A model generated the notes under the pieces. That model saw nothing but the letters and a program-made list of their open reading frames with translations, was not told the origin of the DNA and ran no database searches. Below, in pieces: positions 28,055-43,930 of a DNA stretch of 64,000 nucleotides. Each line of letters opens with the position of its first letter. Positions within the stretch are counted from its first letter, which is position 1. Source of the DNA: Bacteroidales bacterium (lineage in GTDB: Bacteria > Bacteroidota > Bacteroidia > Bacteroidales > FEN-979); the NCBI GenBank assembly GCA_023231065.1, contig JALNWE010000001.1, positions 13,005-77,004 on the forward strand. The letters run 5' to 3'. The position numbers were made by a program, and so were the translations under genes.

Positions 28055-28074
28055 AAATATCAGGAGGAATTACC

Positions 28075-28410
28075 GTGAAAGTAAGTGAACTGGCAGATAA
28101 ATTGGGATTGACAATATTTGGAGGCGCTTCGGGACTTCAAAATGAAATAAAGGGCGGATACACTTCCGATCTGCTCAGCGACGTAATGGGCCATGCTTGT
28201 TCAAATCAGGTATGGATAACCGTTCAAACACACAAAAATGTGATTGCTGTAGCTTCCCTGAAAGAACTTGCTTCTATTATCCTGATCAAGGGTTTAGAAC
28301 CTGCACAGGAAGTGATTGAGCAAAGCGATATCGAAAAAATACCCTTACTGGGGACTAAAGAAGAAGCCTTCGAAATCACTGGAAAGATCTACAATATTTT
28401 AAAAGGATAA
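28075..28410 (+). CDS. DRTGG domain protein (copy 2)
   Basis: GTG start 7 nt after AGGAGG (28062-28067). TSDLLSDVM...IILIKG pattern. Confidence 0.75.
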   Translation: MKVSELADKLGLTIFGGASGLQNEIKGGYTSDLLSDVMGHACSNQVWITVQTHKNVIAVASLKELASIILIKGLEPAQEVIEQSDIEKIPLLGTKEEAFEITGKIYNILKG

Positions 28411-29153
28411 TGAAAACCTTCAGGGCAGACCTACATATTCATACTTTATTATCCCCATGTGGCGACCTGGAGATGAGTCCCGATGTAATCCTGGCCAAAG
28501 CCCGTGAAAAGAATTTGGACCTGATCGGGATTACAGATCATAACAGTACCAGACAATGCCGGGTGATCCGGGAGATGGGCGCTGATTGTGGAATTACTGT
28601 CCTTACCGGAGCCGAAGTAACCACACTGGAAGAAGCCCATTGTCTGGTATATTTCGATACCTTTTGTCAACTCAATGATTTTCAAAAGTTTCTCGACATT
28701 CATCTTCCTAATTTAAAAAATGATGTTAAAAAATTCGGTTATCAGGTATATGTAGATGCCCTGAACAATATTAAAGGAGCTGAAGAACGGTTGCTTATTA
28801 ATGCCCTGGATGCTTCGATTGATGAAGTAGAAAAAGAGGTTCACCGGTTAAATGGCCTTTTTATCCCTGCCCATCTGGATAAACAACGGTTCAGTATCAT
28901 AAGCCAGTTGGGATTCTTGCCACCTGATTTAAAGGTAGATGCTTTGGAAATCTCTCCTTTTACCAGCCCGGACGAATGGGTGTCCGGTCATCCGGAACAT
29001 AAAAAGTATTGCCTTATAAGTGGTTCCGATGCTCATTATCCTGACCAGATCGGAACCCGTATTACTGGTTTTATCATGAACCGGGTAAATTTCGAAGAGA
29101 TCAGAAATGCTTTAAAAGGAGAAAGCAACCGTGAGGTAATAATTATGAACTAA
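28410..29153 (+). CDS. PHP-family metal-dependent phosphoesterase
   Basis: 247 aa. DLHIHTLLSPCGD and GITDHNS motifs. TAATG overlap with the preceding gene. Confidence 0.85.
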   Translation: MKTFRADLHIHTLLSPCGDLEMSPDVILAKAREKNLDLIGITDHNSTRQCRVIREMGADCGITVLTGAEVTTLEEAHCLVYFDTFCQLNDFQKFLDIHLPNLKNDVKKFGYQVYVDALNNIKGAEERLLINALDASIDEVEKEVHRLNGLFIPAHLDKQRFSIISQLGFLPPDLKVDALEISPFTSPDEWVSGHPEHKKYCLISGSDAHYPDQIGTRITGFIMNRVNFEEIRNALKGESNREVIIMN

Positions 29154-29181
29154 TTTTTTACTTTTACAATTAGTTTTTTAT
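29148..29181 (+). terminator. AT-only hairpin + T-run between regulatory and structural halves of locus 2
   Basis: AACTAATT/AATTAGTT 8-bp stem, 12-nt loop, then TTTTAT. Weak because there are no GC pairs. Confidence 0.3.
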
Positions 29182-29239
29182 AAAAAAGTTAATAGAAGAA
29201 CAATAAAATTTTACCATTTTTGCAGTGAAAGATTTAGCA

Positions 29240-29779
29240 ATGCATATCCTGGATATACTTCAGAATTCTTTGAGGGCCAATGCGACAAAAATCGATCTTG
29301 ATATTGATGAGGTCACAACGGCGAACCAGCTGATCATTGCAGTTAGCGATAATGGGAAAGGGATGTCAGAGGAAGTATGCGAAAAGGTTACGGATCCATT
29401 TTACACCTCCCGGACTACCCGAAAAGTCGGCCTTGGCCTTCCTTTATTGAAGCAAAACGCAGAACAAACCGGTGGATCGTTAAGGATAGAAAGTGAAGAA
29501 GGATTAGGGACCCGGGTCACAGCAACCTTTATCCTTAATCACATTGACAGACCGGAGATGGGCGATATAGCGGGAGCTTTAGTACTCACTATAACTGCAA
29601 ACCCGGATATTGAATTCAGTTACAGGCACAGGAAAGACATGCAGAGTTATACTTTTAACACCAGGGAAATAAAAGGAGCGTTGGGGGATTTGCCGCTTAA
29701 TGACCCTCATGTCTATCCCCTTTTGCTGGAGATGGTTCGTGAAAATCTTAAAGAAATTCATGTTGATTGCACAACATAA
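29240..29779 (+). CDS. HATPase_c protein without HisKA domain
   Basis: N box DILQNSLRA, G1 DNGKGM, F box PFYTSR, G2 GLGLPL. The C-terminal ~80 aa are unassigned. Start set at the ATG at 29240. Confidence 0.8.
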   Translation: MHILDILQNSLRANATKIDLDIDEVTTANQLIIAVSDNGKGMSEEVCEKVTDPFYTSRTTRKVGLGLPLLKQNAEQTGGSLRIESEEGLGTRVTATFILNHIDRPEMGDIAGALVLTITANPDIEFSYRHRKDMQSYTFNTREIKGALGDLPLNDPHVYPLLLEMVRENLKEIHVDCTT

Positions 29780-29800
29780 TAAATTTTAAATAAATTGTTT

Positions 29801-30199
29801 ATGGAAAAAATAAAGACACTGGCCGACTTAAAAAAGATGCAGGAAAACTTAAGGGCTAAAATTGATTTAAGGGAAAAGAGCGCGCAACCCGAAACGCATA
29901 TTCAGGTTAAAGTTGCGATGGCAACGTGTGGCATTGCGTCAGGGGCCAAAGAGGTCATGGAGGCGTTTGTTGAAGAGTTCAGCAAACGCAACATAGATGC
30001 CGTGGTGACACAAACAGGTTGTATGGGTTACTGTTACGCCGAACCTACCGTGGAAATAACCAAACCGGGTCAGGACCCGATCACCTTCGGTTATGTCGAT
30101 GTCAAAAAAGTCAGTAAACTGATAGACAAATATATTCTTAACAATGAATTGGTTGATGGGATCATACCGGTCAATTATCAATCCATCGATAAACATTAA
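29801..30199 (+). CDS. thioredoxin-like [2Fe-2S] ferredoxin
   Basis: MATCGIASGA...TGCMGYCYAEP Cys pattern. Start set at the ATG at 29801. Confidence 0.8.
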   Translation: MEKIKTLADLKKMQENLRAKIDLREKSAQPETHIQVKVAMATCGIASGAKEVMEAFVEEFSKRNIDAVVTQTGCMGYCYAEPTVEITKPGQDPITFGYVDVKKVSKLIDKYILNNELVDGIIPVNYQSIDKH

Positions 30200-30217
30200 A
30201 CATCCGGGAGCAATAAT

Positions 30218-32011
30218 ATGGGAAAGATCAAATATCACATGCTGGTTTGCGGCGGGACAGGATGTCACGCTTCACAGAGTGACCAGATCCTGAAAAAATT
30301 TGAAACCCTGATCCATGATAGAGGGTTGGAGAATGAGGTCCAGGTCATCAAAACAGGTTGTTTCGGTTTTTGCGAAAAAGGCCCGATCGTAAAAATGATG
30401 CCTGACAACACTTTTTATACGAAGGTAAAGCTTGATGATTGTGAGGAAATTCTGGAAGAACACATCATCAAGGGCAGAAAGGTAACCCGGTTATTATATG
30501 AAAATCCGGAGACCGGCGAGCATGTCAGCGATTCGAAACACATGGAATTTTATAAGAAGCAGATCCGGATTGCATTGCGTAATTGTGGGTTCATCAATCC
30601 AGAGAACATTGAAGAGTATATCGCCCGTGATGGGTATCAGGCTTTAGGCAAGGTGTTGACCGAGTTATCCCCTGAAGCGACCATTGAAATCATGAAAAAA
30701 TCAGGTCTTCGTGGTCGTGGTGGAGGCGGATTCCCTACTGGTTTAAAATGGGAGATAACCCGTGCTGTAAAATCTGATCAGAAATATGTTGTCTGTAATG
30801 CTGATGAGGGTGACCCAGGCGCCTTTATGGACCGGTCGGTTCTTGAAGGCGATCCTCATTCCGTGCTGGAAGCCATGGCCATCAATGGATATTGTACAGG
30901 CGCTGACAAAGGCCTGGTATATATCCGCGCAGAATACCCACTGGCGGTTGAGCGACTTAAAATTGCCATGAAGCAGGCCCGTGAATATGGTTTGTTAGGG
31001 AAGAATATTTTAGGTACGGGATTTAATTTTGACGTTGAGATACGATATGGGGCAGGTGCATTTGTGTGCGGTGAAGAGACCGCCCTGATCCATTCGATGG
31101 AAGGACTCCGAGGAGAACCCACGGTAAAGCCACCTTTCCCTTCCGAATCGGGCTATCTCGGAAAACCCACCAACGTCAATAATGTTGAAACCTATGCCAA
31201 CGTTCCGGTGATCATCAACAAAGGAGCTGATTGGTTTGCAAAAATCGGGACAGAACGTTCAAAAGGGACCAAAGTATTTGCCCTTGCCGGAAAAATCAAC
31301 AATGTTGGGTTAATCGAAGTCCCCATGGGAATAACCCTCCGTGAAGTCATCTATGAGATCGGTGGCGGAATCAAAAACGACAAAGAGTTCAAGGCGGTTC
31401 AGACTGGCGGGCCATCAGGAGGTATGCTGACGGTGAAAGACCTCGATACTCCCATCGATTATGACAATCTTATTGCCGCTGGTTCCATGATGGGATCAGG
31501 GGGCATGATCGTGATGGACGAAAACGACTGTATGGTTGCGATGGCAAAATTCTATCTGCAGTTTACAGTGGAAGAATCCTGTGGTAAATGTTCCCCATGT
31601 CGTATCGGGAATAAGAGATTATATGAAATGCTTGAGAAGATCACTCAGGGGAATGGCACTCCCGAAGACCTTGACAAATTGAGAAATCTCAGCCAGGTCA
31701 TCAAGGACACCTCTTTATGCGGTCTTGGGCAATCCTCACCGAATCCTGTCCTTTCCAGTCTCAACAATTTTTATGATGAGTACATGGAGCATGTAAACTT
31801 AAAAAAATGCCGTGCAGGAAAATGCAAATCGTTGATGCAATATATTATCAATGCAGAGAATTGTATTGGTTGTACCCTGTGTGCAAGAAATTGTCCTGTC
31901 AACGCAATAACCGGTGAACGCAAACAGGTCCATCTGATTGATCAGGAAAAATGCATCAAATGTGGCGCCTGTATGGAGAAATGTAAATTTAATGCGATTT
32001 ATATCAAATAA
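30218..32011 (+). CDS. hydB: NuoF-like flavoprotein subunit, full-length (locus 2)
   Basis: 597 aa. N-terminal 2Fe-2S (VCGGTGC...TGCFGFCEKGP), GLRGRGGGGFPTGLKW, ESCGKCSPCR and a C-terminal 2x CxxCxxCxxxC. Confidence 0.93.
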   Translation: MGKIKYHMLVCGGTGCHASQSDQILKKFETLIHDRGLENEVQVIKTGCFGFCEKGPIVKMMPDNTFYTKVKLDDCEEILEEHIIKGRKVTRLLYENPETGEHVSDSKHMEFYKKQIRIALRNCGFINPENIEEYIARDGYQALGKVLTELSPEATIEIMKKSGLRGRGGGGFPTGLKWEITRAVKSDQKYVVCNADEGDPGAFMDRSVLEGDPHSVLEAMAINGYCTGADKGLVYIRAEYPLAVERLKIAMKQAREYGLLGKNILGTGFNFDVEIRYGAGAFVCGEETALIHSMEGLRGEPTVKPPFPSESGYLGKPTNVNNVETYANVPVIINKGADWFAKIGTERSKGTKVFALAGKINNVGLIEVPMGITLREVIYEIGGGIKNDKEFKAVQTGGPSGGMLTVKDLDTPIDYDNLIAAGSMMGSGGMIVMDENDCMVAMAKFYLQFTVEESCGKCSPCRIGNKRLYEMLEKITQGNGTPEDLDKLRNLSQVIKDTSLCGLGQSSPNPVLSSLNNFYDEYMEHVNLKKCRAGKCKSLMQYIINAENCIGCTLCARNCPVNAITGERKQVHLIDQEKCIKCGACMEKCKFNAIYIK

Positions 32012-32024
32012 TCAGGAGGAATAC

Positions 32025-33797
32025 ATGGAAATGGTAAAACTGACGATTGACGGAAAGCCCGTTGAAGTCGAAAAAGGCACGACGATTTTAAAGGCAGCCA
32101 AAACTGTTGGCATTGATATACCGACCCTTTGCTTTTTTGAATTAAAGGACATGAGCATTGAAAACCGTCCTGGCGGATGCCGTGTCTGCGTAGTTGAAGT
32201 AAAGGGGCGTCGTAATCTGGCCCCTGCCTGCACAACCATTGTTATGCAAGGCATGGAAGTCAACACGCGCAATATCCGCGTATTAAATGCGCGTAGGACT
32301 GTTCTGGAGCTTATCCTATCTGATCATCCTGCTGAATGTCTCACCTGTGCAAAATCAGGAAATTGTGAACTTCAGAGTTTAGCGCAACAACTTGGTGTCA
32401 GGGAAATACCTTTTCAGGGAGAACAATCAACTTACCGTAAAGATACATCCCCTGCCATTATCCGGGATATTGACAAGTGTATTATGTGCCGGCGGTGTGA
32501 AATGATGTGTAACGACGTTCAGACGGTGGGAGCGCTTTCTGCTGTCAACAGAGGTTTTATGGCAGTGGTAGCCCCTGCTTTTGAAATGAATTTAGAAAAA
32601 TCACCCTGTACTTATTGCGGACAATGTGTATCGGTTTGCCCAACGGGCGCCCTTACAGAAGTTGATCACTCACGCAATGTGATCAATGCCCTTGCTGATC
32701 CTACCAAAACGGTAGTTGTACAGACAGCGCCAGCAGTCCGTGCTGCCCTGGGCGAAGAATTTGGCCTTGCGCCAGGCACTCTTGTAACGGGTAAGATGGT
32801 TGCAGCTCTCAGAAGACTCGGTTTTAACTATGTGTTCGACACTGATTTTGCTGCCGACTTGACTATCATGGAAGAAGGAAGTGAGTTACTCGACCGTCTT
32901 ACCCGTTATCTCAAGGGTGATAAAAGCGTGAAATTGCCTATCCTGACATCATGTTGTCCGGGCTGGGTCAACTTTTTCGAGCATAATTTTCCTGATATGC
33001 TTGATATTCCTTCAACCGCCAAGTCACCTCAACAGATGTTCGGACCAATTGCGAAGGAATACTTCGGAAAGAAGCTTGGTGTTGACAGAAAAAATCTGAT
33101 TGTAGTCTCGATCATGCCGTGTCTGGCAAAGAAATATGAATGCCAGCGTGAAGAATTCAAGGTAAACGGAGATCCTGACGTCAATTTTTCATTGTCAACC
33201 CGTGAGCTTGGCCATTTGATCAAACAGGCGAACATTGATTTTAATTCACTTCCTGATGAGGATTTCGACGATCCATTGGGAGAATCAACCGGAGCCAGTG
33301 TGATCTTTGGAAATACAGGAGGTGTCATTGAAGCTGCCTGCCGTACAGCATACGAGCTGTACACCGGTAAAAAGCTTGAGAAGGTTGAATTCGAAGAACT
33401 CCGGGGCATGGAAGGCATACGTCATGCCACGATTGATTTTGATGGTTTGCCCCTCAATATTGGGATTGCCCATGGATTAGGAAATGCGCGGAAGCTTCTG
33501 GAAGATATTCAGGCCGGAAGAAACCATTTCCATGCCATTGAAATCATGGCCTGTCCTGGTGGATGTATCGGCGGTGGCGGCCAACCATACCACCATGGAG
33601 ATTCAATGATCCTCAAACAACGTGCTGCAGCCCTTTATCGAGAAGATGCAGGAAAGCCCATCCGTAAATCACATGAGAATCCTTTCATTATTGAATTATA
33701 CAAGGAATTCCTGGGTAAACCACTGAGCGAAAAATCGCATCACCTTCTTCACACCCATTATTTTGATAAAAGCGCTGGGGTGTTTGTTGAGGAATAA
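32025..33797 (+). CDS. hydA: [FeFe]-hydrogenase catalytic subunit (locus 2)
   Basis: Start at the ATG at 32025, 5 nt after AGGAGG. P1 TSCCPGW, P2 MPCLAKKYE, P3 EIMACPGGCIGGGGQP. N-terminal 2Fe-2S plus ferredoxin domains. Confidence 0.93.
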   Translation: MEMVKLTIDGKPVEVEKGTTILKAAKTVGIDIPTLCFFELKDMSIENRPGGCRVCVVEVKGRRNLAPACTTIVMQGMEVNTRNIRVLNARRTVLELILSDHPAECLTCAKSGNCELQSLAQQLGVREIPFQGEQSTYRKDTSPAIIRDIDKCIMCRRCEMMCNDVQTVGALSAVNRGFMAVVAPAFEMNLEKSPCTYCGQCVSVCPTGALTEVDHSRNVINALADPTKTVVVQTAPAVRAALGEEFGLAPGTLVTGKMVAALRRLGFNYVFDTDFAADLTIMEEGSELLDRLTRYLKGDKSVKLPILTSCCPGWVNFFEHNFPDMLDIPSTAKSPQQMFGPIAKEYFGKKLGVDRKNLIVVSIMPCLAKKYECQREEFKVNGDPDVNFSLSTRELGHLIKQANIDFNSLPDEDFDDPLGESTGASVIFGNTGGVIEAACRTAYELYTGKKLEKVEFEELRGMEGIRHATIDFDGLPLNIGIAHGLGNARKLLEDIQAGRNHFHAIEIMACPGGCIGGGGQPYHHGDSMILKQRAAALYREDAGKPIRKSHENPFIIELYKEFLGKPLSEKSHHLLHTHYFDKSAGVFVEE

Positions 33798-33839
33798 TAC
33801 AGTTGTAATATCAGAAGTACCTATAAATAAAAGGCAATT

Positions 33840-34319
33840 ATGGCAAAGATTAAATTATCAGAAAAAAAATTGGAGGAGCTCAAGGCAGTCTGCAAATCCT
33901 TTAACAATGAAAAGGGAGAGTTGATTAATGTTCTCCATAAGGCACAAGGAATTTTCGGGTACCTTCCGGCCGAAGTCCAGGAAGTGATTTCCAAAGAACT
34001 GAATGTTTCTGTCGCACATGTATATGGTATTGTAACTTTTTATTCATTTTTCACGATGACTCCCAAAGGAGAGCATCCCGTTTCGATCTGTTTGGGGACA
34101 GCCTGCTATGTCAGAGGCGCTGAAAAAGTATTAGAGGAGTTCAAACGGGTCTTGAAAATCCAGGTTGGTGAAACGACTCCTGATGGGAAATTTTCACTCA
34201 GTTGCCTCCGTTGTGTTGGCGCCTGTGGACTTGCCCCTGTCGTGCTTGTGGGTGAAAAAGTTTATGGACGGGTTTCTCCTGACGGGGTCAAAGATATCGT
34301 TGCAGAATACAACAGCTAA
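33840..34319 (+). CDS. hydC: NuoE-like [2Fe-2S] subunit (locus 2)
   Basis: 159 aa. ICLGTACYVRG...SCLRCVGACGLAP. Confidence 0.9.
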   Translation: MAKIKLSEKKLEELKAVCKSFNNEKGELINVLHKAQGIFGYLPAEVQEVISKELNVSVAHVYGIVTFYSFFTMTPKGEHPVSICLGTACYVRGAEKVLEEFKRVLKIQVGETTPDGKFSLSCLRCVGACGLAPVVLVGEKVYGRVSPDGVKDIVAEYNS

Positions 34320-34345: not shown

Positions 34346-34384
34346 AAAGCCTGCAGGGTGGAAATCCTACGGGCTTTTATTTTA
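34346..34384 (+). terminator. intrinsic terminator after hydC (locus 2)
   Basis: GCCTGCAGG...CCTACGGGC imperfect stem (one mismatch, one GU) followed by TTTTATTTT. Confidence 0.65.
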
Positions 34385-34435: not shown

Positions 34436-35674
34436 CTAATAAAATTTCATGGTAACCTCTTTGAGGAATTTTTCTTCAAGGGTACGCGCTATACGGTGAA
34501 CCACGGTCCTGCGTAATTCAAGCTCTATGGGTAAAGTCGGATCCTGGTGGGCAATATTAATGTTTGTACCCACAAGAAAATGTATTTCGTCACAATCAAG
34601 GATCATACGGACAATTTCATCGGCAGGCCCCTTCCCCAGTTTGTAATTATTGTGATATTTTTTCAATAGTTCGCTCGTTTTACTAAGTGTCAGGATCCCT
34701 TCGGTGATAAGATCGACACCATTCATATTGGAAACAGGTGGCAAGTCAGGATCAAGCATGACGTTGGTGTCGTGTATTTCTTCGCTCCATTCACGGGCTA
34801 TCATATCGCCTGTGGTTGCGCCACAGATGATTTTTTTCCCCTGAAATTGTTTGAAAACATCGCAAAACAGGGAATCGTTTTCGGGATTTTGAGGAGGGCC
34901 GGAGCAGATCATTATTTTCCGGGGCTCCCTGAAATAGATAACACCGCAACTGATATCGTCCCTGGGATGAAAACCATCATTCATATTGGCCCTGTTGACC
35001 ACCTTGGCGGCCAGGTTGACAGCCGATATATCATGTTCATCCTGGATGGTCTCTAAAACATATTTCTCAAGATTGACTGTCCCCCACCCCAGGGAATATT
35101 TTTCGCTACCCAAACCAGATTGGGTTACGCCATCGGAACAGAAGACGATCCGGTCTTCTTTCTGTGGTTTGTATGATGCTGTAAGAATTTCCCTCCCGCT
35201 CCTTTTACCACCTTCAAGAACAATACAATTCCATTCCGGTTCGTGGATATGGTTACCGCGAAGGACCATGGTTTTTGGGTTCTCGTATTCCAGGATCCGG
35301 ACTTCCCCTTCCACATCAATCTCGATGATAGTAAATGTGGAGTAGTTCATATTCTTCACACTATCAACAGGTAATGTATCTGTAATAATCGCCGCGATCT
35401 TCTGGACACTTTTATGTTCCTGGGTAAAATTCACAGCAAGGGTAGCGGCTAAGGTCCCAAGCATATTGGCTTTAATCCCATGGCCCATTCCGTCGGATAA
35501 AACGACAATGATCCTTCCTTCCTCTTTGATCCTTCGCGAAATAAAAACATCACCACAGACCCGTGCATCTGCATGGCATTTTTGCTGACAGGTTACTTCT
35601 ATGTAAAATCGTTCGTTCAAAGCTGACAGGTATGAGATTTCTCTATTTTCCGGTAGGATTCCGGTATGATTCAA
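34436..35674 (-). CDS. PP2C/SpoIIE-family serine phosphatase with uncharacterised C-terminal domain
   Basis: 412 aa. GDVF...VVLSDGMGHGIKANM and DGV..SG motifs. ~180-aa C-terminal domain of unknown function. Start overlaps the upstream sensor gene by 32 nt. Confidence 0.85.
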   Translation of the reverse strand: MNHTGILPENREISYLSALNERFYIEVTCQQKCHADARVCGDVFISRRIKEEGRIIVVLSDGMGHGIKANMLGTLAATLAVNFTQEHKSVQKIAAIITDTLPVDSVKNMNYSTFTIIEIDVEGEVRILEYENPKTMVLRGNHIHEPEWNCIVLEGGKRSGREILTASYKPQKEDRIVFCSDGVTQSGLGSEKYSLGWGTVNLEKYVLETIQDEHDISAVNLAAKVVNRANMNDGFHPRDDISCGVIYFREPRKIMICSGPPQNPENDSLFCDVFKQFQGKKIICGATTGDMIAREWSEEIHDTNVMLDPDLPPVSNMNGVDLITEGILTLSKTSELLKKYHNNYKLGKGPADEIVRMILDCDEIHFLVGTNINIAHQDPTLPIELELRRTVVHRIARTLEEKFLKEVTMKFY

Positions 35675-37520
35675 TTACCGAATTGAGCATTTGTTCTGTT
35701 TTTGCTGCCCCTTCGCCGAGCAAATAAGCAATTTTCTGAACGGTTTCAAAATTTTCATCGATAACTTCGGTCAGACGATTAATAATTTGTTCTTTTCTGA
35801 CTTCAGGGACATACATGTCGCGCAGGATTCCACCCACATATTTATGGCTCCGGATGGGAAAAATGGAAATGCTGAGCTTATTCTCTTCGTACAAAACATC
35901 TTTATGTTCTATATATTCATCGGTGGAGAGGACATAAGAAAACATTTTATAAATATTGACAGGAAGCAAGGTTTTCAGATCTGCTCCAACCAACCCCGGA
36001 ATAACTTCATCCACCAGGGTCGCTTCTTCGCCAAGGATGCGGATGAATGCCTTGTTGGATTGTATAACTTTTAATTTATCATCAACAATTACAACGCCGG
36101 ATACGAGTTTCTGCAACATGGCAGATACGATATTGTTTGCCTCTTTTTGCGCCTCCTGTTCGTTTTTTGCTTTTTCCTCTGATTCTTTCAGGGCAGCCTG
36201 TGTCTTTGCCAGTTTTTCATTGGTGGCACGAAGGGTCCGGATATATTCCTGTCTGTTTTTTCCGCTAAAGACATGACACATTTCGGTTGTTGCCAATCCC
36301 TGAGCTATGGCAATAGCAAATTCCCGACAATTTGAATAACCGCAGGATTCACAGCCCACCTCGTTGTTTTTATCATCTTCCCGGTGGATCATTTTAAGCA
36401 CTTCCACTATTTTTTGTTCTTCAGGAACTGGTAAGCGTTGATCATCGGCGTTGAATTGCCTTGACAGGTCAAGGTCTTCACAAGCAGCCACCTGATCTTC
36501 CCAGGTATTCTTGTCAAATGTTGTAAGCCGTTTGTTGGCGTAATCAGTAACCAGGGTCATCCGGAGGAATTTTTCCCCAGCTGGCGAGGTACCGGGGCCC
36601 ATCAGGCATCCTTCATCATAAAACATATTAAAATGCCTTTTGATCCTATCAATCCGGGAATCGAATTCCTTCACTGCATCGATCATATCGTTGCGTCCCT
36701 CAGTCGTGATCACATTTCCAGTCAGTAAATCTTCACTGATATTGACACTTTGGAGAATTCCGTTGGCTATCGGATACAGGGAGCCTTTATAACCCAGGGG
36801 AGGGTCAAATTCAGAAAATTCAAGTTGATTTTCCCTGATATTAAACTGCGTGAAAAGTTCACGTAGCTCTACAAAAGTCAAAACTGCATCAATTTTAGCG
36901 TCCCCTTCAAATTTTAACGCTTCTTCCTTAGTAGCGATACAGGGGCCTATAAAGATTATTTTCAGATCCTGACCGTATTTTTTCCGGAGAACCTTGGCAG
37001 TGGCGACCATAGGAGAAACAACCGGTACCAGATTATTGATAAGTTCCGGATAATATTTTTCAATAAAGGCAACAACCGTCGGGCAATTAGCGGAAATGTG
37101 GTAGCGTCCTTTAAAATTCTCGAATATTTCTTTATATTTTCTGGCAACAAGGTCAACGCCGAAAGATACTTCGCTGACGTATGTGAATCCGAGTTGTTTG
37201 ATCATTTCAACGAATTTCCTGTAGTCTGTTATATCATGGAATTCGCCTGAAATTGTAGGGTCGCAGATGGCAGCAATTTTTTGGCCTGATGCCAGCAAGG
37301 CTTTTGTTTCACCGATAGAACTACGGTAAGAAATGGCGCCTGGGGAACAAGCCCTGTAGCAGCTTCCGCAGCCTATGCAACGCGCGGGGATGATGGACGG
37401 AAATTCCGTGTTGACATCAACCCTAATAGCTTTGACGGGGCATATTCTGATGCATGAATAGCATTTGATGCAGGATTCATGATGGATAAGCAGAAGATGA
37501 TCGGTACACATTGTGATCAA
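35643..37520 (-). CDS. hydS: putative sensory [FeFe]-hydrogenase-like protein with C-terminal PAS domain
   Basis: 625 aa. Two ferredoxin Cys motifs, ISANCPTVV / IGPCIATKEE / YDEGCLMGPG, CESCGYSNC-x16-C, a coiled linker, then a PAS-like ~120 aa. Confidence 0.85.
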   Translation of the reverse strand: MITMCTDHLLLIHHESCIKCYSCIRICPVKAIRVDVNTEFPSIIPARCIGCGSCYRACSPGAISYRSSIGETKALLASGQKIAAICDPTISGEFHDITDYRKFVEMIKQLGFTYVSEVSFGVDLVARKYKEIFENFKGRYHISANCPTVVAFIEKYYPELINNLVPVVSPMVATAKVLRKKYGQDLKIIFIGPCIATKEEALKFEGDAKIDAVLTFVELRELFTQFNIRENQLEFSEFDPPLGYKGSLYPIANGILQSVNISEDLLTGNVITTEGRNDMIDAVKEFDSRIDRIKRHFNMFYDEGCLMGPGTSPAGEKFLRMTLVTDYANKRLTTFDKNTWEDQVAACEDLDLSRQFNADDQRLPVPEEQKIVEVLKMIHREDDKNNEVGCESCGYSNCREFAIAIAQGLATTEMCHVFSGKNRQEYIRTLRATNEKLAKTQAALKESEEKAKNEQEAQKEANNIVSAMLQKLVSGVVIVDDKLKVIQSNKAFIRILGEEATLVDEVIPGLVGADLKTLLPVNIYKMFSYVLSTDEYIEHKDVLYEENKLSISIFPIRSHKYVGGILRDMYVPEVRKEQIINRLTEVIDENFETVQKIAYLLGEGAAKTEQMLNSVIESYRNPTGK

Positions 37521-37602
37521 TAATGATGGTCAAAGATATGAATATCTGTGGGTTTTTATGTTTTGGCTCAAAAAAAAAGGAAAAAACCTGGTAATAAAAT
37601 CT

Positions 37603-37637
37603 TTGTTTATTTTTTCACATTGCTAATTTTTTCACAG
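37603..37637. promoter_or_regulatory. two abutting Rex-operator-like palindromes (degenerate)
   Basis: TTGTTTATTTTTTCACAT (37603-37620) and TTGCTAATTTTTTCACAG (37620-37637) share one base, the same 17-bp register as at 25787-25821. They lie in the divergent hydS / hydC3 intergenic region. Confidence 0.5.
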
Positions 37638-37666
37638 GTAAATATTTCAGAATTAACTTTTATTGT

Positions 37667-37674
37667 TATTTTTG
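37667..37674 (+). promoter_or_regulatory. Bacteroidota -7 box TATTTTTG
   Basis: Matches TAnnTTTG, 29 bp upstream of the hydC3 ATG at 37703. Confidence 0.35.
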
Positions 37675-37702
37675 TAAAGAATAAACGATATATTTATGAT
37701 AT

Positions 37703-38167
37703 ATGGATGAAATTATCGGGATTGTTCTATCGAGATACCCGGCTGGCAAAAAAGAAGGGTTACTCCCGATCCTCCAGGAGATTCAGGAAGAAAAGGGTTT
37801 TTTAACCGGAGAAATCCTTAATGAAGTCTCTGCTTATCTTGACATTCCTGTCAATAAAATATATGGGGTCGCTGCATTTTATGATCAGTTTCGTTTCAAG
37901 CCCCATGGCCGTTTTCATATTCAATTATGCAATGGTACATCCTGTTATTTACACGGTTCTTTTCCTTTGTTGCGGGATTTGGAAAAGCAATTGAAAATCA
38001 AAGCTGGTAGCACGAGCCGTGACGGGAAGTTTAGCATAGAAATCATTCCCTGTATGGGGGCCTGCGAGCAATCACCTGTTATAAAAGTGAATGACACTTC
38101 TTACAATAAGGTCACCCAGGAAGATTTGAGGAAGATCATCCGAACCATAAAAGATAAATCTGAATAA
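37703..38167 (+). CDS. hydC: NuoE-like [2Fe-2S] subunit (locus 3)
   Basis: 154 aa. IQLCNGTSCYLHG...IIPCMGACEQSP. Confidence 0.9.
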   Translation: MDEIIGIVLSRYPAGKKEGLLPILQEIQEEKGFLTGEILNEVSAYLDIPVNKIYGVAAFYDQFRFKPHGRFHIQLCNGTSCYLHGSFPLLRDLEKQLKIKAGSTSRDGKFSIEIIPCMGACEQSPVIKVNDTSYNKVTQEDLRKIIRTIKDKSE

Positions 38168-38168
38168 A

Positions 38169-40118
38169 ATGTCAGCTTCAACCACCTTAAAGATTACAGA
38201 ATTTCTTGTTGAGAAGGTCGTAAAAAACTATTCGGGTTTTTATGATAAGGGAACTGCCGAGTTGCTTGCTCAGATAAAAAGGGAAAAAGTGACGCGCCCG
38301 GTCATTTATATAGGGATGGGGACTTGCGGTTTGGTTGCAGGAGCAGGTAAAACCATGAAAGCAGTTGAAAACTACCTGGAGGAAAACAAGCTGGATGCAG
38401 AAATAATCAAGGTTGGCTGCATCGGGCTCTGCTCTGCTGAACCAATCATGGATGTTCAATTACCTGGTAAGGCCCGGATTTCTTTTCAACATGCCACCGA
38501 AGAAAAGGTCGAAGACTTGCTGAATGCTGTTTTTCATCATACTCTGATGCACGACAATTCCCTGGGGCAATACCGTTTCTCCTCTCATGAGGATTGGCCT
38601 GGTTTACCTTATATTGAACAACTTCCATTTTTCGCTTCCCAGCGCAGGATTGTATTGCGAAATGCCGGGATTATTTCGCCTTTATCCATTCATGATTACA
38701 TGGCACGGGGTGGGTACAGGTCATTGTTCAAAACCGTTCTTAATTATACCCCTGAAAAGGTTTGTGAGATCATAGATCAGAGTGAATTAAGAGGACGCGC
38801 CGGCGGAGGGTACCCTACCGGTAAAAAATGGTTGGTCGCTTTGAATACTGGCAGCGATCAGAAATACCTTATTTGTAATGCTGACGAGAGTGATCCAGGC
38901 GCTTATATGGATCGGACACTTCTGGAAGGGGATCCTCACAGGGTGATCGAAGGGATGGCCATTGCAGCATATGCAATCGGAGCAAACAAAGCATTTATTT
39001 ACCTTAGGTCAGATTACAAGCAATCCATACTCCTGCTTCAACATGCATTACTGGAAGCCAGAACATGCGGTTTTTTAGGAGAAAATATTTTTGGGAGTGG
39101 GTTTAACCTGAGCGTTTTTATCCGCCAGGGCGCAGGCGCTTTTGTATGTGGTGAAGAGACCGCCCTGATATCGAGTCTCGAAGGAAGTCGCGGCATTCCT
39201 CATGAAAAACCCCCCTTTCCAGCTGAGAAGGGGTTGTTGGGACATCCTACCATTGTTAACAATGTTGAAACACTTGCCAATATACCACCCATTCTTGAAA
39301 ATGGCCCTTCATGGTTCAAAGCCATCGGTAAAAAAGGCAGCACCGGTACGAAAGTGATCTGCATCACCGGGAATGGGGTTCATACGGGTGTGGTAGAGAT
39401 TCCTATGGGAATAAAAATTTCGGATATTGTCTATTCCATCGCCGGAGGCATAAAAAATGATAAAAAACTGAAAGCCGTTCAGCTTGGAGGTCCGGCTGGC
39501 ATCTGCATTCCGCCCAAAGACCTGGATGTAGAAATAGGATATGATTCTTTGGAGGAGATCGGAGCCTCAACGGGTTTAGGAGGGCTTATCATTCTTGATG
39601 AAGATACCTGCATGGTAAATTTATCTAAATATTTTATGGATTTTCTACAAAAGGAAAGTTGTGGTAAGTGTATTCCCTGCCGTGAAGGAACAAAAAGAAT
39701 GTTGGAGATACTGGAAGGGATTACACGTCGGCCAAAAGAAGAGAGTTCGCATGAAACCCTTGAAAGGTTTAAAGGTGTTGTTCAACTGGAGAATCTGGCA
39801 GAAGTGATCAGGGATACTTCGTTATGTGGTTTGGGCCAGAATGCCTCAAACCCAGTTCTTTCAAGCCTTAAATGGTTCAGGGAAGAATATGAAGAACACA
39901 TCTTTGACAGGAAATGTCAGGCAGGCGTTTGTCATGATCTCAGGACTTTTTACATCGATGTTGAACTATGCAACGGATGCAATGTGTGTCAGAAAAAATG
40001 TCCTGAAAATGCCATCATTGGCTCCGTTAAGATGCCTCATTTCATCATCGAATCAAAATGTACCGGATGCGGAATCTGTTTTGACAGTTGTAAGTTCAGT
40101 GCGATCTATTTTAAATAA
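38169..40118 (+). CDS. hydB: NuoF-like flavoprotein subunit with extended N-terminal 2Fe-2S domain (locus 3)
   Basis: 649 aa. N-terminal GMGTCGLVAGAGKT...VGCIGLCSAEP, ELRGRAGGGYPTGKKW, ESCGKCIPCREG and a C-terminal 2x CxxCxxCxxxC. Confidence 0.93.
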   Translation: MSASTTLKITEFLVEKVVKNYSGFYDKGTAELLAQIKREKVTRPVIYIGMGTCGLVAGAGKTMKAVENYLEENKLDAEIIKVGCIGLCSAEPIMDVQLPGKARISFQHATEEKVEDLLNAVFHHTLMHDNSLGQYRFSSHEDWPGLPYIEQLPFFASQRRIVLRNAGIISPLSIHDYMARGGYRSLFKTVLNYTPEKVCEIIDQSELRGRAGGGYPTGKKWLVALNTGSDQKYLICNADESDPGAYMDRTLLEGDPHRVIEGMAIAAYAIGANKAFIYLRSDYKQSILLLQHALLEARTCGFLGENIFGSGFNLSVFIRQGAGAFVCGEETALISSLEGSRGIPHEKPPFPAEKGLLGHPTIVNNVETLANIPPILENGPSWFKAIGKKGSTGTKVICITGNGVHTGVVEIPMGIKISDIVYSIAGGIKNDKKLKAVQLGGPAGICIPPKDLDVEIGYDSLEEIGASTGLGGLIILDEDTCMVNLSKYFMDFLQKESCGKCIPCREGTKRMLEILEGITRRPKEESSHETLERFKGVVQLENLAEVIRDTSLCGLGQNASNPVLSSLKWFREEYEEHIFDRKCQAGVCHDLRTFYIDVELCNGCNVCQKKCPENAIIGSVKMPHFIIESKCTGCGICFDSCKFSAIYFK

Positions 40119-40125
40119 CAGGAAA

Positions 40126-41847
40126 ATGCAATTTGATATTGAGATCAACGATGAACATGTAACCGCAAAAAGGGGAGAAACGATAAAAAACGTTTTAGAC
40201 CGTATCGGGATCAAAGTACCGACATTGTGTTACATGAATGGATTTTCACCCACGGGAAGCTGTAGAATGTGTGTTGTGGAAGTAGATGGGATACCAGGGC
40301 TCGTTCCTTCCTGTTCTCATCTTGTTGAGGAGTGGATGAAGATAAAAACACATTCCCCACGCGTAATCAAAGCCAGAAAAACCCTGATTGAACTTTTGTT
40401 AGCCAGTCATCCAAATGATTGTCTTTATTGTGAAAAAAACGGTCAATGTGAACTTCAGGTTCTTGCGTCAGAGCTTCAGGTAAGGGAGCGAAAATATCAA
40501 TCGAAAAGGACTCCCATTCAAATTGATAAAATTTGTCCAAGTATTGAGCGGGATCCTGCAAAATGTGTCCTATGTGAAAGGTGTGTCAGGGTTTGCAATG
40601 AGATCATCGGGGTTGGCGCCATTGACATAATCGGCCGTGGAAGCGAGAGCCGTATTGGTACCACCTATAACAAAGGATTGAATGTTAAAGCCTGTGTAAA
40701 ATGCGGACAATGTATTCAGGTATGTCCAACGGGGGCATTAACAGAAAAACAGTCTTTTCAGGCTGTGATGGAAGCCCTGAATAAACCCGGACTTTTCCCC
40801 GTACTACAGTTTTCGCCCACAGTCCCAGCTGCTATTGCTGAGGAATTCAATCTGAAAACGAATAAAGATGTGCTAAACCTGTTAAGGGCCGCTTTAAAAA
40901 AGATGGGATTTCGCCAGGTATTTGATACTTCCATGGCAGCTGATCTGAACATCATGGAAGAGGCAGCTGAGTTCATCGACCGTTTAAAAAGCCAAAAAGA
41001 TCTTCCACTTTTTACATCTTGTTGCCCATCATGGGTTCATTTTGTCGAAGCGCTCAGGCCCGGATTTCTGCCAAAACTCTCTACCACCTTGCCCCCTCAG
41101 CAGATCATGGGTAGGCTTATCAAGCAGTATATTACCAGCTCGGCCGGGCAAAAGCCAGAGGATGTATATGTTGTCTCTGTGATGCCATGTACTGCTAAGA
41201 AAGATGAAGCAGGAAAAGATTATCTAAAGGATTCGGAAACCCGTTTTGTTGATGCAGTAATCACAACCCGTGAGTTAATCAAGATGATCCGGTTGATGGG
41301 CATCGATTTTTCAGGATTAGAGCCTGAGCCCAATGACTCTTCTTTTAGCATCAGGAGTTCTGCCAGTAAACTCTTTGGAGTTGCAGGAGGTCATCTTGAA
41401 GGTTTGATCAGAACCATTCACTTCAACCTTACAGGTCAGGAACTGTCACCATTAAAACTAACAGATTTAAGAGGTCTCAAAACCAGAAAAGAAACGAGGA
41501 TCAGACTTGGCAAGCAATTGATTAATGTGGTTTCAGTCAGTGGATTGGCCAACATTAAATCCATTCTTGATGAAATTGAAGCAGGTAAGGGAGATGTCCA
41601 TATCATTGAGGTCATGGCTTGTCCTTATGGATGCATTAACGGTGGAGGTCAGCCAAAAGGGAGTGATGAAAAGAGTTTAAAAGGAAGGATGAAAGTAATT
41701 TACGATGTTGATGAAGAAGAAATCATCAAAGTGGCTCATAAAAATCCGATTATGACTGGTTTATATGAAAAATTTCTTGACAGGCCCAACAGCGACAGAA
41801 ATAAAGAATTACTTCATGTTTTACGCAATTCAATCGAAATCCAATGA
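40126..41847 (+). CDS. hydA: [FeFe]-hydrogenase catalytic subunit (locus 3)
   Basis: Start at the ATG at 40126, after the hydB stop. P1 TSCCPSW, P2 MPCTAKKDE, P3 EVMACPYGCINGGGQP. Confidence 0.93.
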   Translation: MQFDIEINDEHVTAKRGETIKNVLDRIGIKVPTLCYMNGFSPTGSCRMCVVEVDGIPGLVPSCSHLVEEWMKIKTHSPRVIKARKTLIELLLASHPNDCLYCEKNGQCELQVLASELQVRERKYQSKRTPIQIDKICPSIERDPAKCVLCERCVRVCNEIIGVGAIDIIGRGSESRIGTTYNKGLNVKACVKCGQCIQVCPTGALTEKQSFQAVMEALNKPGLFPVLQFSPTVPAAIAEEFNLKTNKDVLNLLRAALKKMGFRQVFDTSMAADLNIMEEAAEFIDRLKSQKDLPLFTSCCPSWVHFVEALRPGFLPKLSTTLPPQQIMGRLIKQYITSSAGQKPEDVYVVSVMPCTAKKDEAGKDYLKDSETRFVDAVITTRELIKMIRLMGIDFSGLEPEPNDSSFSIRSSASKLFGVAGGHLEGLIRTIHFNLTGQELSPLKLTDLRGLKTRKETRIRLGKQLINVVSVSGLANIKSILDEIEAGKGDVHIIEVMACPYGCINGGGQPKGSDEKSLKGRMKVIYDVDEEEIIKVAHKNPIMTGLYEKFLDRPNSDRNKELLHVLRNSIEIQ

Positions 41848-43826
41848 GTCATTCTTATCACCGGCAGTTGGTTTTTACCATCAAGGAAAGATGCAGGGTT
41901 TGCTTTACCTGTGTAAGGGAATGTCCGGTAAAGGCCATTAAAATTATCAATGGCCAGGCTGAAGTTCTCAATGAGCGGTGCATTGGATGCGGGAATTGCG
42001 TCAAGGTTTGTAGCCAGGGTGCAAAAATCCCCCTGAATTCAGTCAATGAAGTGGAAGAAATGTTAGCATCTGATCATCTCATCGCGGCTTGCATTGCCCC
42101 CAGTTTTCCAGCTGAGTTTGAGGAAATTAAAGATCACCGGGTCATTGTTGGCATGGTACGGAAGCTTGGTTTCGATTTTGTTACGGAAGTTTCTTTTGGC
42201 GCTGATCTCGTAGCGCAAGCTTATGAAAAGAGACTTAAAAATGAACAGAAAGGAGGGGATATTTCTTCAGATTGTCCTGCCATTGTATATTTTATTCGTC
42301 AGTATAACCCCGATTTAGTCCCTTATCTTGCTCCTATTGCCTCCCCTATGGTTGCCATGACGCGGGTAATGAAAAAAAAACATGGGGCTGGTTTGAAGGT
42401 TGTTTTTATTGGACCTTGTTTCGCCAAAAAAGCAGAAACAGAAGAGGTGGATGAAGTATTGACCTTCAGGGAGCTCCGTGGAATGTTGCAGAAACGTAAT
42501 ATCTCTCCTGAAAACATTACCCCGTCTGAGTTTGATCCTCCATATAGCAGTAAGGGCGCCATTTTTCCTATAAGCCGGGGCCTCTATTATACTTCCAACA
42601 GTCAGGAAGCAATACCGGAAGAACATGTAGTGATAGCTGAAGGCCGAATTAACTTTAAGGAAGCCGTCAAGGAATTTGAAGATGGTTTTATCCGCGACAA
42701 GCACCTGATGCTACTTTGCTGTGAAGGATGTATCATGGGGCCCGGAACATCACCCGGAGGAAAACGGTTTTCACGCAGTGCGGCCGTCGGGGAATATGTC
42801 GGGAAAAAAATGCAGAATATTGACATGGAAACCTGGCAACGGGATATTGATTTTTACAGTGACATCGATCTTTCACAAAGTTTCAATCCAGAAGATCGCC
42901 GGCTCGGACCTGCCTCCAACGAAGATGTATTACAGGCGCTTCATGAAATGGGAAAGTTTACCGAGAAGGATCATCTGAATTGCGGGGCCTGTGGTTATGA
43001 TACATGCGTTGAGCATGCGACTGCCATTGTGCAGCGATTAGCTGAAACAGAGATGTGCCTACCATATACCATTGAAAAGTTACATGATTCGATCAATGAT
43101 CTTAATATTTCCAATGAAAAGCTTGCCCATGCGAAAGCAGCCTTAAAACAATCTGAGAAATTGGCCCACATGGGACAGCTTTCAGCCGGCATCGCCCACG
43201 AGTTGAATAACCCGCTGGGTGTTATTACCATGTACAGCAACATTTTAATGGATGAGGCCCCTGAAGGCGCTGCAGTCCGGGAGGATCTCAAACTGATCGT
43301 AGAACAAGCCGACCGGTGTAAAAAAATTGTCAGTGGTTTGTTAAACTTTGCCCGAAAGAACCAGGTGAATTTATCGGAGACGGATGTCGTAAAATTTCTC
43401 AACCACAGTGTCAATTCCATTATTAAGCCCGACAATATTACGATAACGGTTATACCCAACATCCAGGATCCCGTTGCTTTTCTTGATATTGATCAGATGA
43501 TGCAGGTTTTAACCAACCTTGAAAAGAATGCCATTGAAGCCATGCCCAATGGCGGATCGTTAACGGTCAGTGTAGAAGGGAATAAAGAGGAGGTTATTTT
43601 TATTGTGAAGGATACCGGAACAGGAATAGCGAAGGAATATATGGACAAACTTTTTACCCCGTTTTTTACCACCAAGGAGATGGGGAAAGGCACGGGGCTC
43701 GGGCTTGCCCTGATATATGGGATTGTCAAGATGCACAAAGGAAAGATCCACGTTGATTCCAATGATGATCCAGCCGCCGGACCCACCGGATCCACGTTCA
43801 GAATAACCGTACCGAGGGGCAGATGA
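41844..43826 (+). CDS. sensory [FeFe]-hydrogenase-like domain fused to a histidine kinase
   Basis: 660 aa. ATGA overlap with hydA3. Ferredoxin motifs, ISSDCPAIV / IGPCFAKK / LCCEGCIMGPG, CGACGYDTC-x16-C, then HisKA H-box IAHELNNPLG and HATPase_c (DTGTGI, GTGLGL). Confidence 0.88.
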   Translation: MSHSYHRQLVFTIKERCRVCFTCVRECPVKAIKIINGQAEVLNERCIGCGNCVKVCSQGAKIPLNSVNEVEEMLASDHLIAACIAPSFPAEFEEIKDHRVIVGMVRKLGFDFVTEVSFGADLVAQAYEKRLKNEQKGGDISSDCPAIVYFIRQYNPDLVPYLAPIASPMVAMTRVMKKKHGAGLKVVFIGPCFAKKAETEEVDEVLTFRELRGMLQKRNISPENITPSEFDPPYSSKGAIFPISRGLYYTSNSQEAIPEEHVVIAEGRINFKEAVKEFEDGFIRDKHLMLLCCEGCIMGPGTSPGGKRFSRSAAVGEYVGKKMQNIDMETWQRDIDFYSDIDLSQSFNPEDRRLGPASNEDVLQALHEMGKFTEKDHLNCGACGYDTCVEHATAIVQRLAETEMCLPYTIEKLHDSINDLNISNEKLAHAKAALKQSEKLAHMGQLSAGIAHELNNPLGVITMYSNILMDEAPEGAAVREDLKLIVEQADRCKKIVSGLLNFARKNQVNLSETDVVKFLNHSVNSIIKPDNITITVIPNIQDPVAFLDIDQMMQVLTNLEKNAIEAMPNGGSLTVSVEGNKEEVIFIVKDTGTGIAKEYMDKLFTPFFTTKEMGKGTGLGLALIYGIVKMHKGKIHVDSNDDPAAGPTGSTFRITVPRGR

Positions 43827-43908
43827 CCATTGACCATTGACCATTGACTATTGACTATTGACCATTGACTATTGACTATTGACCATTTGACTATTGACCA
43901 TTTGACTA
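43824..43908. repeat. 12-unit heptanucleotide tandem array TGACYAT starting on the TGA stop codon
   Basis: Units TGACCAT x3, TGACTAT x2, TGACCAT, TGACTAT x2, TGACCAT, T, TGACTAT, TGACCAT, T, TGACTA. It fills most of the 105-bp intergenic gap. Confidence 0.95.
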
Positions 43909-43930
43909 ACATATTAAAACAATCAGCAAG

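Follow-up and report, generated by a model that had tools for sequence, protein, structure and literature searches.

Among the [FeFe] hydrogenases, HydDB recognizes the histidine-kinase-linked group C1, the chemotactic group C2 and the phosphatase-linked group C3, all of them putative (PMC5037454). The combination of an H-cluster/PAS subunit with a phosphatase subunit was described by Greening et al. in 2019 (PMC6776011). In the hfs operon of Thermoanaerobacterium, HfsB is a HydS with a PAS domain, and HfsC is related to serine phosphatases (PMC11837493). Deletion of hfsA/B gives a high-ethanol phenotype only if hfsC and hfsD are intact (PMC5707799), which fits a sensor acting upstream of the phosphatase. 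A gene pair of this kind is found on the minus strand of a 64,000-nucleotide (nt) stretch of a Bacteroidales genome (contig JALNWE010000001.1, positions 13,005 to 77,004), referred to below as the window: it encodes a HydS/HfsB-type sensory [FeFe]-hydrogenase-like protein (35643-37520) and, downstream, a PP2C phosphatase of the SpoIIE/RsbU type. By architecture and gene order, the two genes would probably form a phosphatase-linked sensory pair of group C3, the counterparts of HydS/HfsB and HfsC. The pair is a new Bacteroidales member of an already known, mechanistically unsolved class. The preliminary description of this DNA had recognized the HydS(PAS) and PP2C genes and drawn the parallel with Ruminococcus and the hfs clusters of Thermoanaerobacterium, in agreement with the literature (PMC6776011, PMC5707799, PMC11837493, PMC5037454); both open reading frames (ORFs) exist on the minus strand, and domain searches assign them as it did.

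Comparison with described systems

The likeness to Ruminococcus albus HydS and to HfsB/HfsC, drawn from their published descriptions, covers ferredoxin-like clusters, an H-domain devoid of the proton-relay cysteine, a probable PAS domain, a gene for a Ser/Thr phosphatase right behind that of the sensor, hydrogenase genes around and Rex as a recurrent neighbour. The differences are equally clear: the window pair has neither an hfsA-like small gene upstream nor an hfsD-like hydrogenase downstream, its host is a member of the Bacteroidales, it is divergent from a HydABC operon containing a kinase-fused sensor, and its own sensor has an aspartate in place of one H-cluster cysteine. Two putative sensory enzymes have been characterised biochemically, TmHydS of Thermotoga maritima and TamHydS of Thermoanaerobacter mathranii, and are described as very poor catalysts with a modified proton pathway (PMC8924675, PMC11376134, PMC10055695). 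They share class and domain logic with the window sensor, whose L3 motif, FYDEGC, nevertheless brings the ligand positions one residue closer together and has an aspartate at the first of them.

The phosphatase belongs to the same PP2C subfamily as RsbP, RsbU and SpoIIE of Bacillus (Pfam SpoIIE; folds of SpoIIE, RsbX and Rv1364c). RsbP is also governed by a PAS domain, but in the window the PAS-like domain resides on a separate polypeptide. Furthermore, the window PP2C has no N-terminal regulatory domain, possessing a C-terminal α/β domain instead, and no linked STAS antagonist, dedicated kinase or sigma factor. HoxBC-HoxJ-HoxA of Ralstonia eutropha, in which a catalytically poor hydrogenase serves as H2 sensor and feeds a signalling enzyme for hydrogenase genes (PMC5707799, PMC6776011), is a functional analogue of the pair. 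Its [NiFe] metal centre and its family are unrelated, however, and its output is a histidine kinase/response regulator, not a PP2C; the closer analogue in the window is a kinase-fused HydS-like protein (41844-43826, plus strand).

Organization of the two genes

Several features of a C3 pair are found together here: an H-domain with Fer4 motifs, loss of the proton-relay cysteine, and a PP2C gene 22 nt downstream on the same strand, with a terminator-like hairpin behind it. The longest ORF of the sensor gene extends over 625 amino acids (aa) from a TTG at 37520, although the start is probably the ATG at 37511 (ORF residue 4). The longest ORF of the phosphatase (34436-35674) encodes 412 aa. Its 120 closest homologues are mostly 394 aa long, and their first residue is that encoded by TTG 35620, which is the predicted start of a 394-aa protein. 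The 412-aa product and the 32-nt overlap between the genes, both reported earlier, thus give way to a 394-aa protein and a 22-nt spacer (35621-35642): the overlap is an artefact of the longest ORF, since the homologues start at TTG 35620. About 65 nt past the PP2C stop, a terminator-like hairpin followed by a T-run (34353-34370, minus strand) sits in the convergent gap opposite the HydABC1 end, and the RNA fold of the 107-nt 3' region past the PP2C gene has a z of -3.15. From this hairpin, the operon would consist of these two genes only.

From its N-terminus, the sensor harbors two ferredoxin-type CxxCxxCxxxC motifs (37332-37487; Pfam Fer4; residues 12-63, Cys 17, 20, 23, 27 and 48, 51, 54, 58), the H-domain (36594-37280; residues 81-309; Fe_hyd_lg_C, E 1.4e-40) and an extra C-terminal Fe-S motif (36273-36353; PF04060, E 9.6e-7; Cys 390, 393, 398, 415) that is conserved among orthologues. 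A coiled-coil-like linker leads to a region of approximately residues 462-570 (35811-36137) that is probably PAS-like. PAS_9 matches residues 475-569 (E 0.0086, under the Pfam cut-off), and residues 424-563 are covered by the NCBIfam model of the two-component histidine kinase PnpS (E 4e-6). From the PDB, a profile made of 26 orthologous sensor C-termini retrieved PAS domains only, at E-values of 0.01-0.4 that include Aer2 (0.01), DcuS (0.039) and YtvA (0.11). These scores are weak and mutually consistent, making the PAS-like fold probable, not proven. The last ~55 residues (571-625; 35646-35810) form a tail with invariant and near-invariant columns in the ortholog alignment (consensus PEVRKEEVI..EVID.NL..VQQIGFLLGEGA..TE.MLNSII). 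It is better conserved than the PAS-like region and is a candidate output or docking segment.

The catalytic domain of the phosphatase spans residues 1-230 of 394 (34931-35620) and matches PF07228 (SpoIIE) with 55.3 bits against a cut-off of 25. The AlphaFold2 (AF2) model of the protein (predicted local distance difference test, pLDDT, 83.7) retrieves 3pu9 (E 4e-13), SpoIIE (5mqh), RsbU-RsbW (3ke6) and 3w40 in Foldseek, and superposes on the phosphatase domains of SpoIIE, RsbX, Rv1364c RsbU and SiaA. The protein has the complete set of four metal-binding Asp motifs, namely CGD24, SD43GMGHG, SD163GV and D221D222. Among 46 close homologues (68-86% identity), D24, D43, D163 and D221/D222 are invariant; in a set of 38 homologues with identities as low as 30%, D222 still never varies, and D24, D43 and D156 hardly do. 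The second gene is a SpoIIE-type PP2C phosphatase with intact catalytic residues, predicted to be active.

Conservation of the pair across lineages

Related loci, cited below by L numbers, were gathered in two sets: species-representative genomes yielded 80 loci in a search with a diverse phosphatase alignment, and metagenomes another 80, with a distant member of the phosphatase family as the lead sequence. The ORFs of these 160 loci were labelled by BLASTP against the window proteins. Enough upstream sequence to judge the pairing was available in 131 of them (75 genome and 56 metagenome loci). In 122 of these 131 (66/75 and 56/56, respectively), the gene immediately preceding the PP2C gene encodes HydS(PAS), with a median spacer of 0 nt (quartiles -4 to +10). 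HydS(PAS)-PP2C is a tightly coupled two-gene module across phyla. Nine Bacteroidales loci (L057, L063, L064, L065, L067, L069-L072), several of which come from yak rectum and termite gut, have the PP2C complete with C-terminal domain and lack an upstream HydS gene, so that the phosphatase can exist without this sensor. Small ORFs upstream of three such orphans (L057, L064, L070) were considered as remnants of the HydS PAS region and rejected, as BLASTP gave no similarity and no Pfam domain was found. To note, L059, L060 and L062 (Marinifilum, Labilibaculum) and L130 possess tandem duplicated pairs, combining a copy of the Bacteroidales type, with CxxC in L3, and one of the distant type, with canonical CxxxC.

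The neighbourhood of the pair is hydrogenase-related. A divergent NuoE2-led HydABC2 operon stands beside it in 43 of the 80 Bacteroidota loci and, where flanks suffice, continues with a HydS-like histidine kinase (HydS-HK), a response regulator (RR) and a hybrid RR/HK, matching the window order. In other lineages, the pair is found behind a Rex-HydABC operon or ahead of a gene for a monomeric Fe-hydrogenase-like protein, the latter as in hfsB-hfsC-hfsD. Recurrent unlabelled neighbours encode a thioredoxin-like 2Fe-2S protein, HydF, radical-SAM proteins, AdhE and CheB. The thioredoxin-like [2Fe-2S] ferredoxin gene (~99 aa; e.g. L020:4094-4390) stands directly before the sensor gene in 45 or more loci of various lineages; neither the window nor L001 has it. 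Neither a STAS protein nor a kinase was found as a recurrent neighbour (146 loci). A conserved kinase or STAS gene downstream of the PP2C was likewise discarded, the recurrent genes there being NUDIX, metallophosphoesterase, Sel1, YgjP and phosphoglucomutase. The lack of an adjacent kinase or substrate, taken earlier for a peculiarity of this locus, is thus the rule over the 160 related loci.

The nearest relative, L001 (a Bacteroidales metagenome-assembled genome, MAG), is syntenic with the window across the whole island. A 99% identical PP2C and a 100% identical copy of the RsbW-like protein described below are recorded in Bacteroidales MAGs or JGI metagenomes.

The divergent operon and Rex-like boxes

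The sensor gene shares a 182-bp control region (37521-37702) with a divergent operon on the plus strand (37703-46147), which encodes NuoE2, NuoF2, HydA2, the kinase-fused HydS-like protein, a receiver, a hybrid receiver/kinase and, at its end, Rex (45506-46147). With the Rex-operator pattern TTGTGAAnnnnTTCACAA and at most 3 mismatches allowed, two tandem boxes are found in this region (37603-37620 and 37620-37637), 17 bp apart and with 3 mismatches each. Pairs of such boxes lie upstream of all three HydABC operons of the window: boxes at 25787 and 25804 (span 25787-25821) have one mismatch each, and boxes at 18301 and 18347 (span 18301-18364) precede HydABC3. The tandem 17-bp offset is seen in two of the three pairs. 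Over the whole window, 12 matches were counted for 6.5 expected, a marginal excess reached by 3 of 100 shuffles. The Rex-box argument therefore leans on the position of the boxes and on their enrichment among orthologs: in orthologous divergent regions the motif occurs at 1.20 per kb versus 0.10 per kb elsewhere, a 12-fold difference, with matches in 25 of 49 loci; the AT-richness of sequence between genes qualifies this figure. The Rex gene itself lies within the flanks of 15 loci, directly adjoining the sensor gene in 7 of them, in two orientations, and it stands next to the pair in several phylum-level groups. Elements resembling TAnnTTTG were noticed by eye at 37531-37538 (minus) and 37668-37675 (plus); a sigma-70 promoter scan was uninformative in this Bacteroidales genome.

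Within the divergent operon, the HydS-like protein (41844-43826, 660 aa, with four H-cluster cysteines) is fused directly to HisKA and HATPase_c domains. The phosphorelay that it forms with the stand-alone receiver and the hybrid receiver/kinase (41844-45515) has no DNA-binding output domain of its own, and its order is kept in many Bacteroidota loci. With moderate confidence, the pair belongs with this divergent HydABC2-HydS-HK-RR-RR/HK-Rex operon and not with the GHKL module upstream of HydABC1.

Ligands of the H-cluster

Ligand positions were read from an alignment of the sensor with HydA1, HydA3 and the other two HydS-like proteins of the window, in CpI numbering (C300, C355, C499, C503). 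C146, C194 and C305 are the equivalents of C300, C355 and C503, while the C499-equivalent position is occupied by D302. The proton-relay cysteine is absent, Asn145 standing in an L1 motif ISANCP instead of TSCCP; such a loss has been described for the sensory class (PMC8924675). The sensor table comprises 71 sequences, namely the window protein and 70 orthologues recovered from the 80 genome loci. All four ligand cysteines are present in 47 of them; 12 have N, D or H at the C499 equivalent, as does the nearest relative L001 with its Asn, and 11 have lost all four. In most Bacteroidota sensors, the last two ligand cysteines are one residue closer together; the canonical CxxxC is kept by distant HydS_PAS homologues (31-34% identity, e.g. 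L076-L080). The other two HydS-like proteins of the window, including the kinase-fused one, have all four H-cluster cysteines.

Ligand-less sensors occur in L008, L009, L013, L016, L019, L024, L036, L039, L042 and L050; L018, listed beside them, keeps the C300 equivalent only. In examples of these proteins, NDP, SPL and FYKEF replace NCP, GPC and FYCEGC, and the C-terminal Fe-S motif is retained. All 11 ligand-less sensors retain the PAS-like region, the tail and the PP2C partner, so that, in some lineages, the partnership apparently does not depend on H-cluster binding. Given the D302 substitution and the ligand losses in relatives, H2 binding by the window sensor is not assured.

The C-terminal domain of the phosphatase

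Residues 231-394 of the phosphatase (34439-34930) form an α/β domain with a conserved GGTT..R loop. This domain of ~165 aa, given as ~180 aa and left unassigned in the preliminary description, is real and without a Pfam family; it is the best-conserved part of the protein. In a search of 1.84 billion representative proteins, ORF residues 248-412 matched 841 clusters. Among the best 150 of these, the domain ends at the protein C-terminus in all but one, mostly in ~390-aa proteins; the shorter matches look like N-terminally truncated fragments, and no other architecture was seen.

No Pfam family, methylglyoxal synthase (MGS) included, matched the domain even at E 10, and a sequence search of the PDB returned a SIS-domain protein alone (E 0.47). 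Structure prediction, proposed earlier as a check, yielded for the isolated domain a three-layer α/β AF2 model (pLDDT 86), whose best Foldseek match, methylglyoxal synthase 1vmd, is weak (E 6.7e-3, probability 0.99, TM-score 0.40). In hhalign, the domain and Escherichia coli MgsA (the sequence identical to 1b93) align with a probability of 25%, pairing GGTTA.IISRE and LVTEG with TGTTGNLISRA and LISEG of MgsA; the TGTTG segment is presumably the phosphate-binding loop of the enzyme. The likeness to MGS domains thus comprises the best structural match and a co-linear G-x-T-T-x-x-I-S-R loop. On the other side, the similarity is weak, with no Pfam match and no sign of catalysis or ligand binding in the C-terminal domain of the PP2C. 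An MGS-like, possibly phosphate-ligand-binding domain is suggested by these weak scores, no more. A DRTGG or STAS-like substrate mimic was also considered for this domain and rejected: hhalign gave at most 1% against both DRTGG families (98.7% for DRTGG1 versus DRTGG2), and neither STAS nor DRTGG structures were among its Foldseek matches.

The DRTGG/RsbW-like block upstream of HydABC1

On the plus strand, a block upstream of HydABC1 (25883-29779) encodes DRTGG1, an RsbW/SpoIIAB-like kinase (26239-26655, 138 aa, HATPase_c_2, E 9.7e-11), a PAS-less HydS-like protein (461 aa, at 26669), DRTGG2, a PHP-domain protein and, as last gene, a HATPase_c protein of 184 aa (29225-29779). A full-text literature search for DRTGG and hydrogenase gave no description of this block. 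The N, G1 and G2 ATP-binding boxes of the RsbW-like protein are intact, and its best NCBIfam match is SpoIIAB, with 66 bits against a family cut-off of 135. DRTGG1 and DRTGG2 are paralogues and share an invariant Ser-containing SDL(M/L)SDV.

In Lentimicrobium saccharophilum and relatives, transketolase, TruA, HydABC3, the DRTGG block and HydABC1 are followed by succinyl-CoA ligase, a backbone order that the window shares around its own DRTGG block; no HydS-PP2C pair is found within 10 kb on either side of the L. saccharophilum block. Only 6 of the 160 loci (5/80 genome and 1/80 metagenome loci) have an RsbW-like gene at 10 kb or less from the PP2C gene. The rarity of this linkage and the Lentimicrobium block without the pair nearby argue that the DRTGG block and HydS-PP2C are separate units, brought together in this island. 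In three Marinilabiliales-like loci, L055 (Plebeiibacterium), L058 and L073, the order on one strand is HydS_PAS>PP2C>DRTGG1>RsbW-like>HydS-like>DRTGG2>PHP>HATPase, which parallels rsbU-rsbV-rsbW-sigB. The HydS-like protein follows the kinase gene at the sigma-factor position, by analogy only; the window's extracytoplasmic function (ECF) sigma factor is unlinked. Of the other components of partner switching, a STAS antagonist appears neither among the scanned window ORFs nor among the recurrent neighbours, and the HATPase_c_2 protein, the nearest to a linked RsbW/SpoIIAB-type kinase, is ~8 kb away on the opposite strand.

Proposed mechanism and alternative explanations

In the explanation favoured here, the metal clusters of the sensor would, by homology, respond to H2 or to cellular redox state, and the phosphatase would receive this information through the PAS-like domain and the tail. 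The genes are adjacent and coupled; that sensor and phosphatase form a complex, in which the one controls the other, is what we infer. The PP2C would then remove a Ser/Thr phosphate from a protein encoded away from the pair, and the expression or activity of hydrogenase and fermentation enzymes would be altered. Several points weigh against this explanation: D302 leaves the four-cysteine ligand set incomplete, and relatives have substituted or entirely lost ligands; the PAS assignment relies on weak scores; nine Bacteroidales loci have the phosphatase alone; the Rex-box matches in the control region of the pair are poor, and boxes of this sort are easily met in AT-rich DNA between genes; neither a substrate nor a kinase or output regulator came to light, and a 2024 review calls the signal-transduction mechanism of this class unknown (PMC11376134).

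Some of these points lead to other readings of the two proteins. A sensor without a normal H-cluster could report redox state through its ordinary Fe-S clusters or be a mere scaffold for the PP2C, the module then being redox- and not H2-responsive. The residue at the C499 equivalent in the window and in L001, the relatives with substituted or missing ligands, all of which keep PP2C, PAS-like domain and tail, and the complete cysteine sets of the other two HydS-like proteins, of which the kinase-fused one could do the H2 sensing, are in line with such a sensor. The window protein keeps three of the four ligands, however, including the bridging C305, an aspartate is able to ligate Fe-S clusters, and most of the tabulated sensors retain four cysteines, all of which makes this reading unlikely, though not far-fetched. 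The phosphatase might also receive a signal of its own: an MGS-like C-terminal module sensing a phosphorylated metabolite or a nucleotide would let it integrate carbon flux with the HydS signal. The conservation of the domain, the synthase at the top of the Foldseek list, the co-linear MgsA segments and an AHQDP motif similar, by eye and not from a tool alignment, to the PHDP of MgsA are consistent with this. Yet the structural and profile scores are weak, Pfam finds no MGS match, and a surface for dimerisation or HydS docking would explain the domain equally well; a ligand module of this kind is quite unlikely.

Other readings concern the target. The preliminary description had joined the PP2C to the GHKL ATPases at 26239 and 29240 as one circuit split over both strands. 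The ATPases are indeed the only kinase candidates, as no other kinase, and no STAS protein, was found among the scanned ORFs of the window. In such partner switching, the PP2C, the RsbW-like kinase and perhaps the HATPase_c protein would act together, DRTGG would replace the STAS antagonist, and the PAS-less HydS-like protein or HydABC1 would be the target. The SpoIIAB-like 138-aa protein with its intact boxes, the one-strand order of L055, L058 and L073, the serine motif common to both DRTGG paralogues and the absence of a second PP2C from the window favour this circuit. The two modules are nevertheless separable: the kinase is rarely linked to the PP2C, its block is tied to HydABC1 and, in Lentimicrobium, has no such pair within 10 kb on either side, the pair occurs outside Bacteroidota with no such kinase nearby, and it travels with the divergent HydABC2-HydS-HK operon. 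In addition, the SpoIIAB match is far under its cut-off, DRTGG phosphorylation is undocumented, the PP2C C-terminal domain is unrelated to DRTGG, and the block has a candidate phosphoesterase of its own in its PHP-domain protein. The split circuit is accordingly kept here as an improbable alternative only. Very unlikely, too, is the broader proposal of a STAS-less partner switching dedicated to hydrogenases, with DRTGG as antagonist, the PAS-less HydS-like protein or HydABC as sequestered target, HydS(PAS) setting the activity of the phosphatase, and the order seen in L055, L058 and L073 as the ancestral, unsplit state. A further reading is direct action of the phosphatase on a hydrogenase subunit or maturation protein of the surrounding operons, as a post-translational control in place of one exerted by a transcriptional regulator. 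Hydrogenase structural genes (HydABC, or a monomeric hfsD-like gene downstream) are a constant class of neighbours over the 160 loci, HydF and radical-SAM maturase genes recur, and Eminoglu et al. argue that the hfs effect is partly post-transcriptional (PMC5707799). A kinase would still be required, neighbourhood cannot tell a regulation target from a substrate, and an open literature search gave no Ser/Thr phosphorylation of [FeFe] hydrogenases, so that this possibility is the most doubtful of those considered.

The hydrogenase island

The window contains three HydABC loci, HydABC3 (18418-21899), HydABC1 (29795-34319) and HydABC2 (37703-41847), and three distinct HydS-like proteins: the PAS-less one, the PAS-bearing sensor and the HisKA+HATPase_c fusion. 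The pair does lie between hydrogenase operons, as first described, although the window holds three such loci and not two. The rest of the 64 kb consists of housekeeping genes.

HydA3 (20106-21899) has TSCSPGW instead of TSCCPGW in L1, with a Ser at a ligand Cys, while MPCTAK and MACPGGC are normal; TSCSPGW is present in all five orthologues checked. It is preceded by NuoE3 and a short 388-aa NuoF3 (18418-20073), the HydB partner, in which the additional Fe-S domains seen in the other two HydB are missing. As compared to L161 (L. saccharophilum), the window has ~3.9 kb extra between HydABC3 and the DRTGG block (21975-25675), with an uncharacterised ORF of 280 aa and genes for a histidine kinase of 647 aa and a response regulator of the OmpR type; in L001, the same regulator adjoins DRTGG1. 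The longest-ORF starts of HydA1 (31938-33797, TTG 31938) and HydA2 (39826-41847, GTG 39826) reach back into the NuoF genes before them, by 74 and 293 nt, respectively. For HydA2, MQFDIEIN near 40123, just past the NuoF2 stop at 40118, looks like the genuine start. Both overlaps are probably artefacts, as is the case for the PP2C gene. A single sigma factor was found in the window, a 201-aa protein of the ECF-type sigma-70 class (49419-50024, minus strand), ~14 kb from the PP2C gene and among housekeeping genes, with no anti-sigma gene noticed beside it.

Concluding remarks

The comparison of loci narrows, without solving it, the question of how putative H2-sensing [FeFe] hydrogenases relay their signal. 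The absence of a kinase or substrate beside the pair is the rule, so the search for the target has to cover the whole genome. Among regulators, Rex alone is a recurrent neighbour of the two genes. Throughout its family, the phosphatase carries a previously undescribed C-terminal domain. Bacteroidales sensors that have lost their ligands and kept their phosphatase, the presence of three HydS-like proteins beside three HydABC loci and, in a few genomes, the position of the pair ahead of the RsbW-like block are points that can be put to the test. Sensing of H2 is thought to steer the fermentation balance in the rumen, in the gut and in industrial anaerobes.

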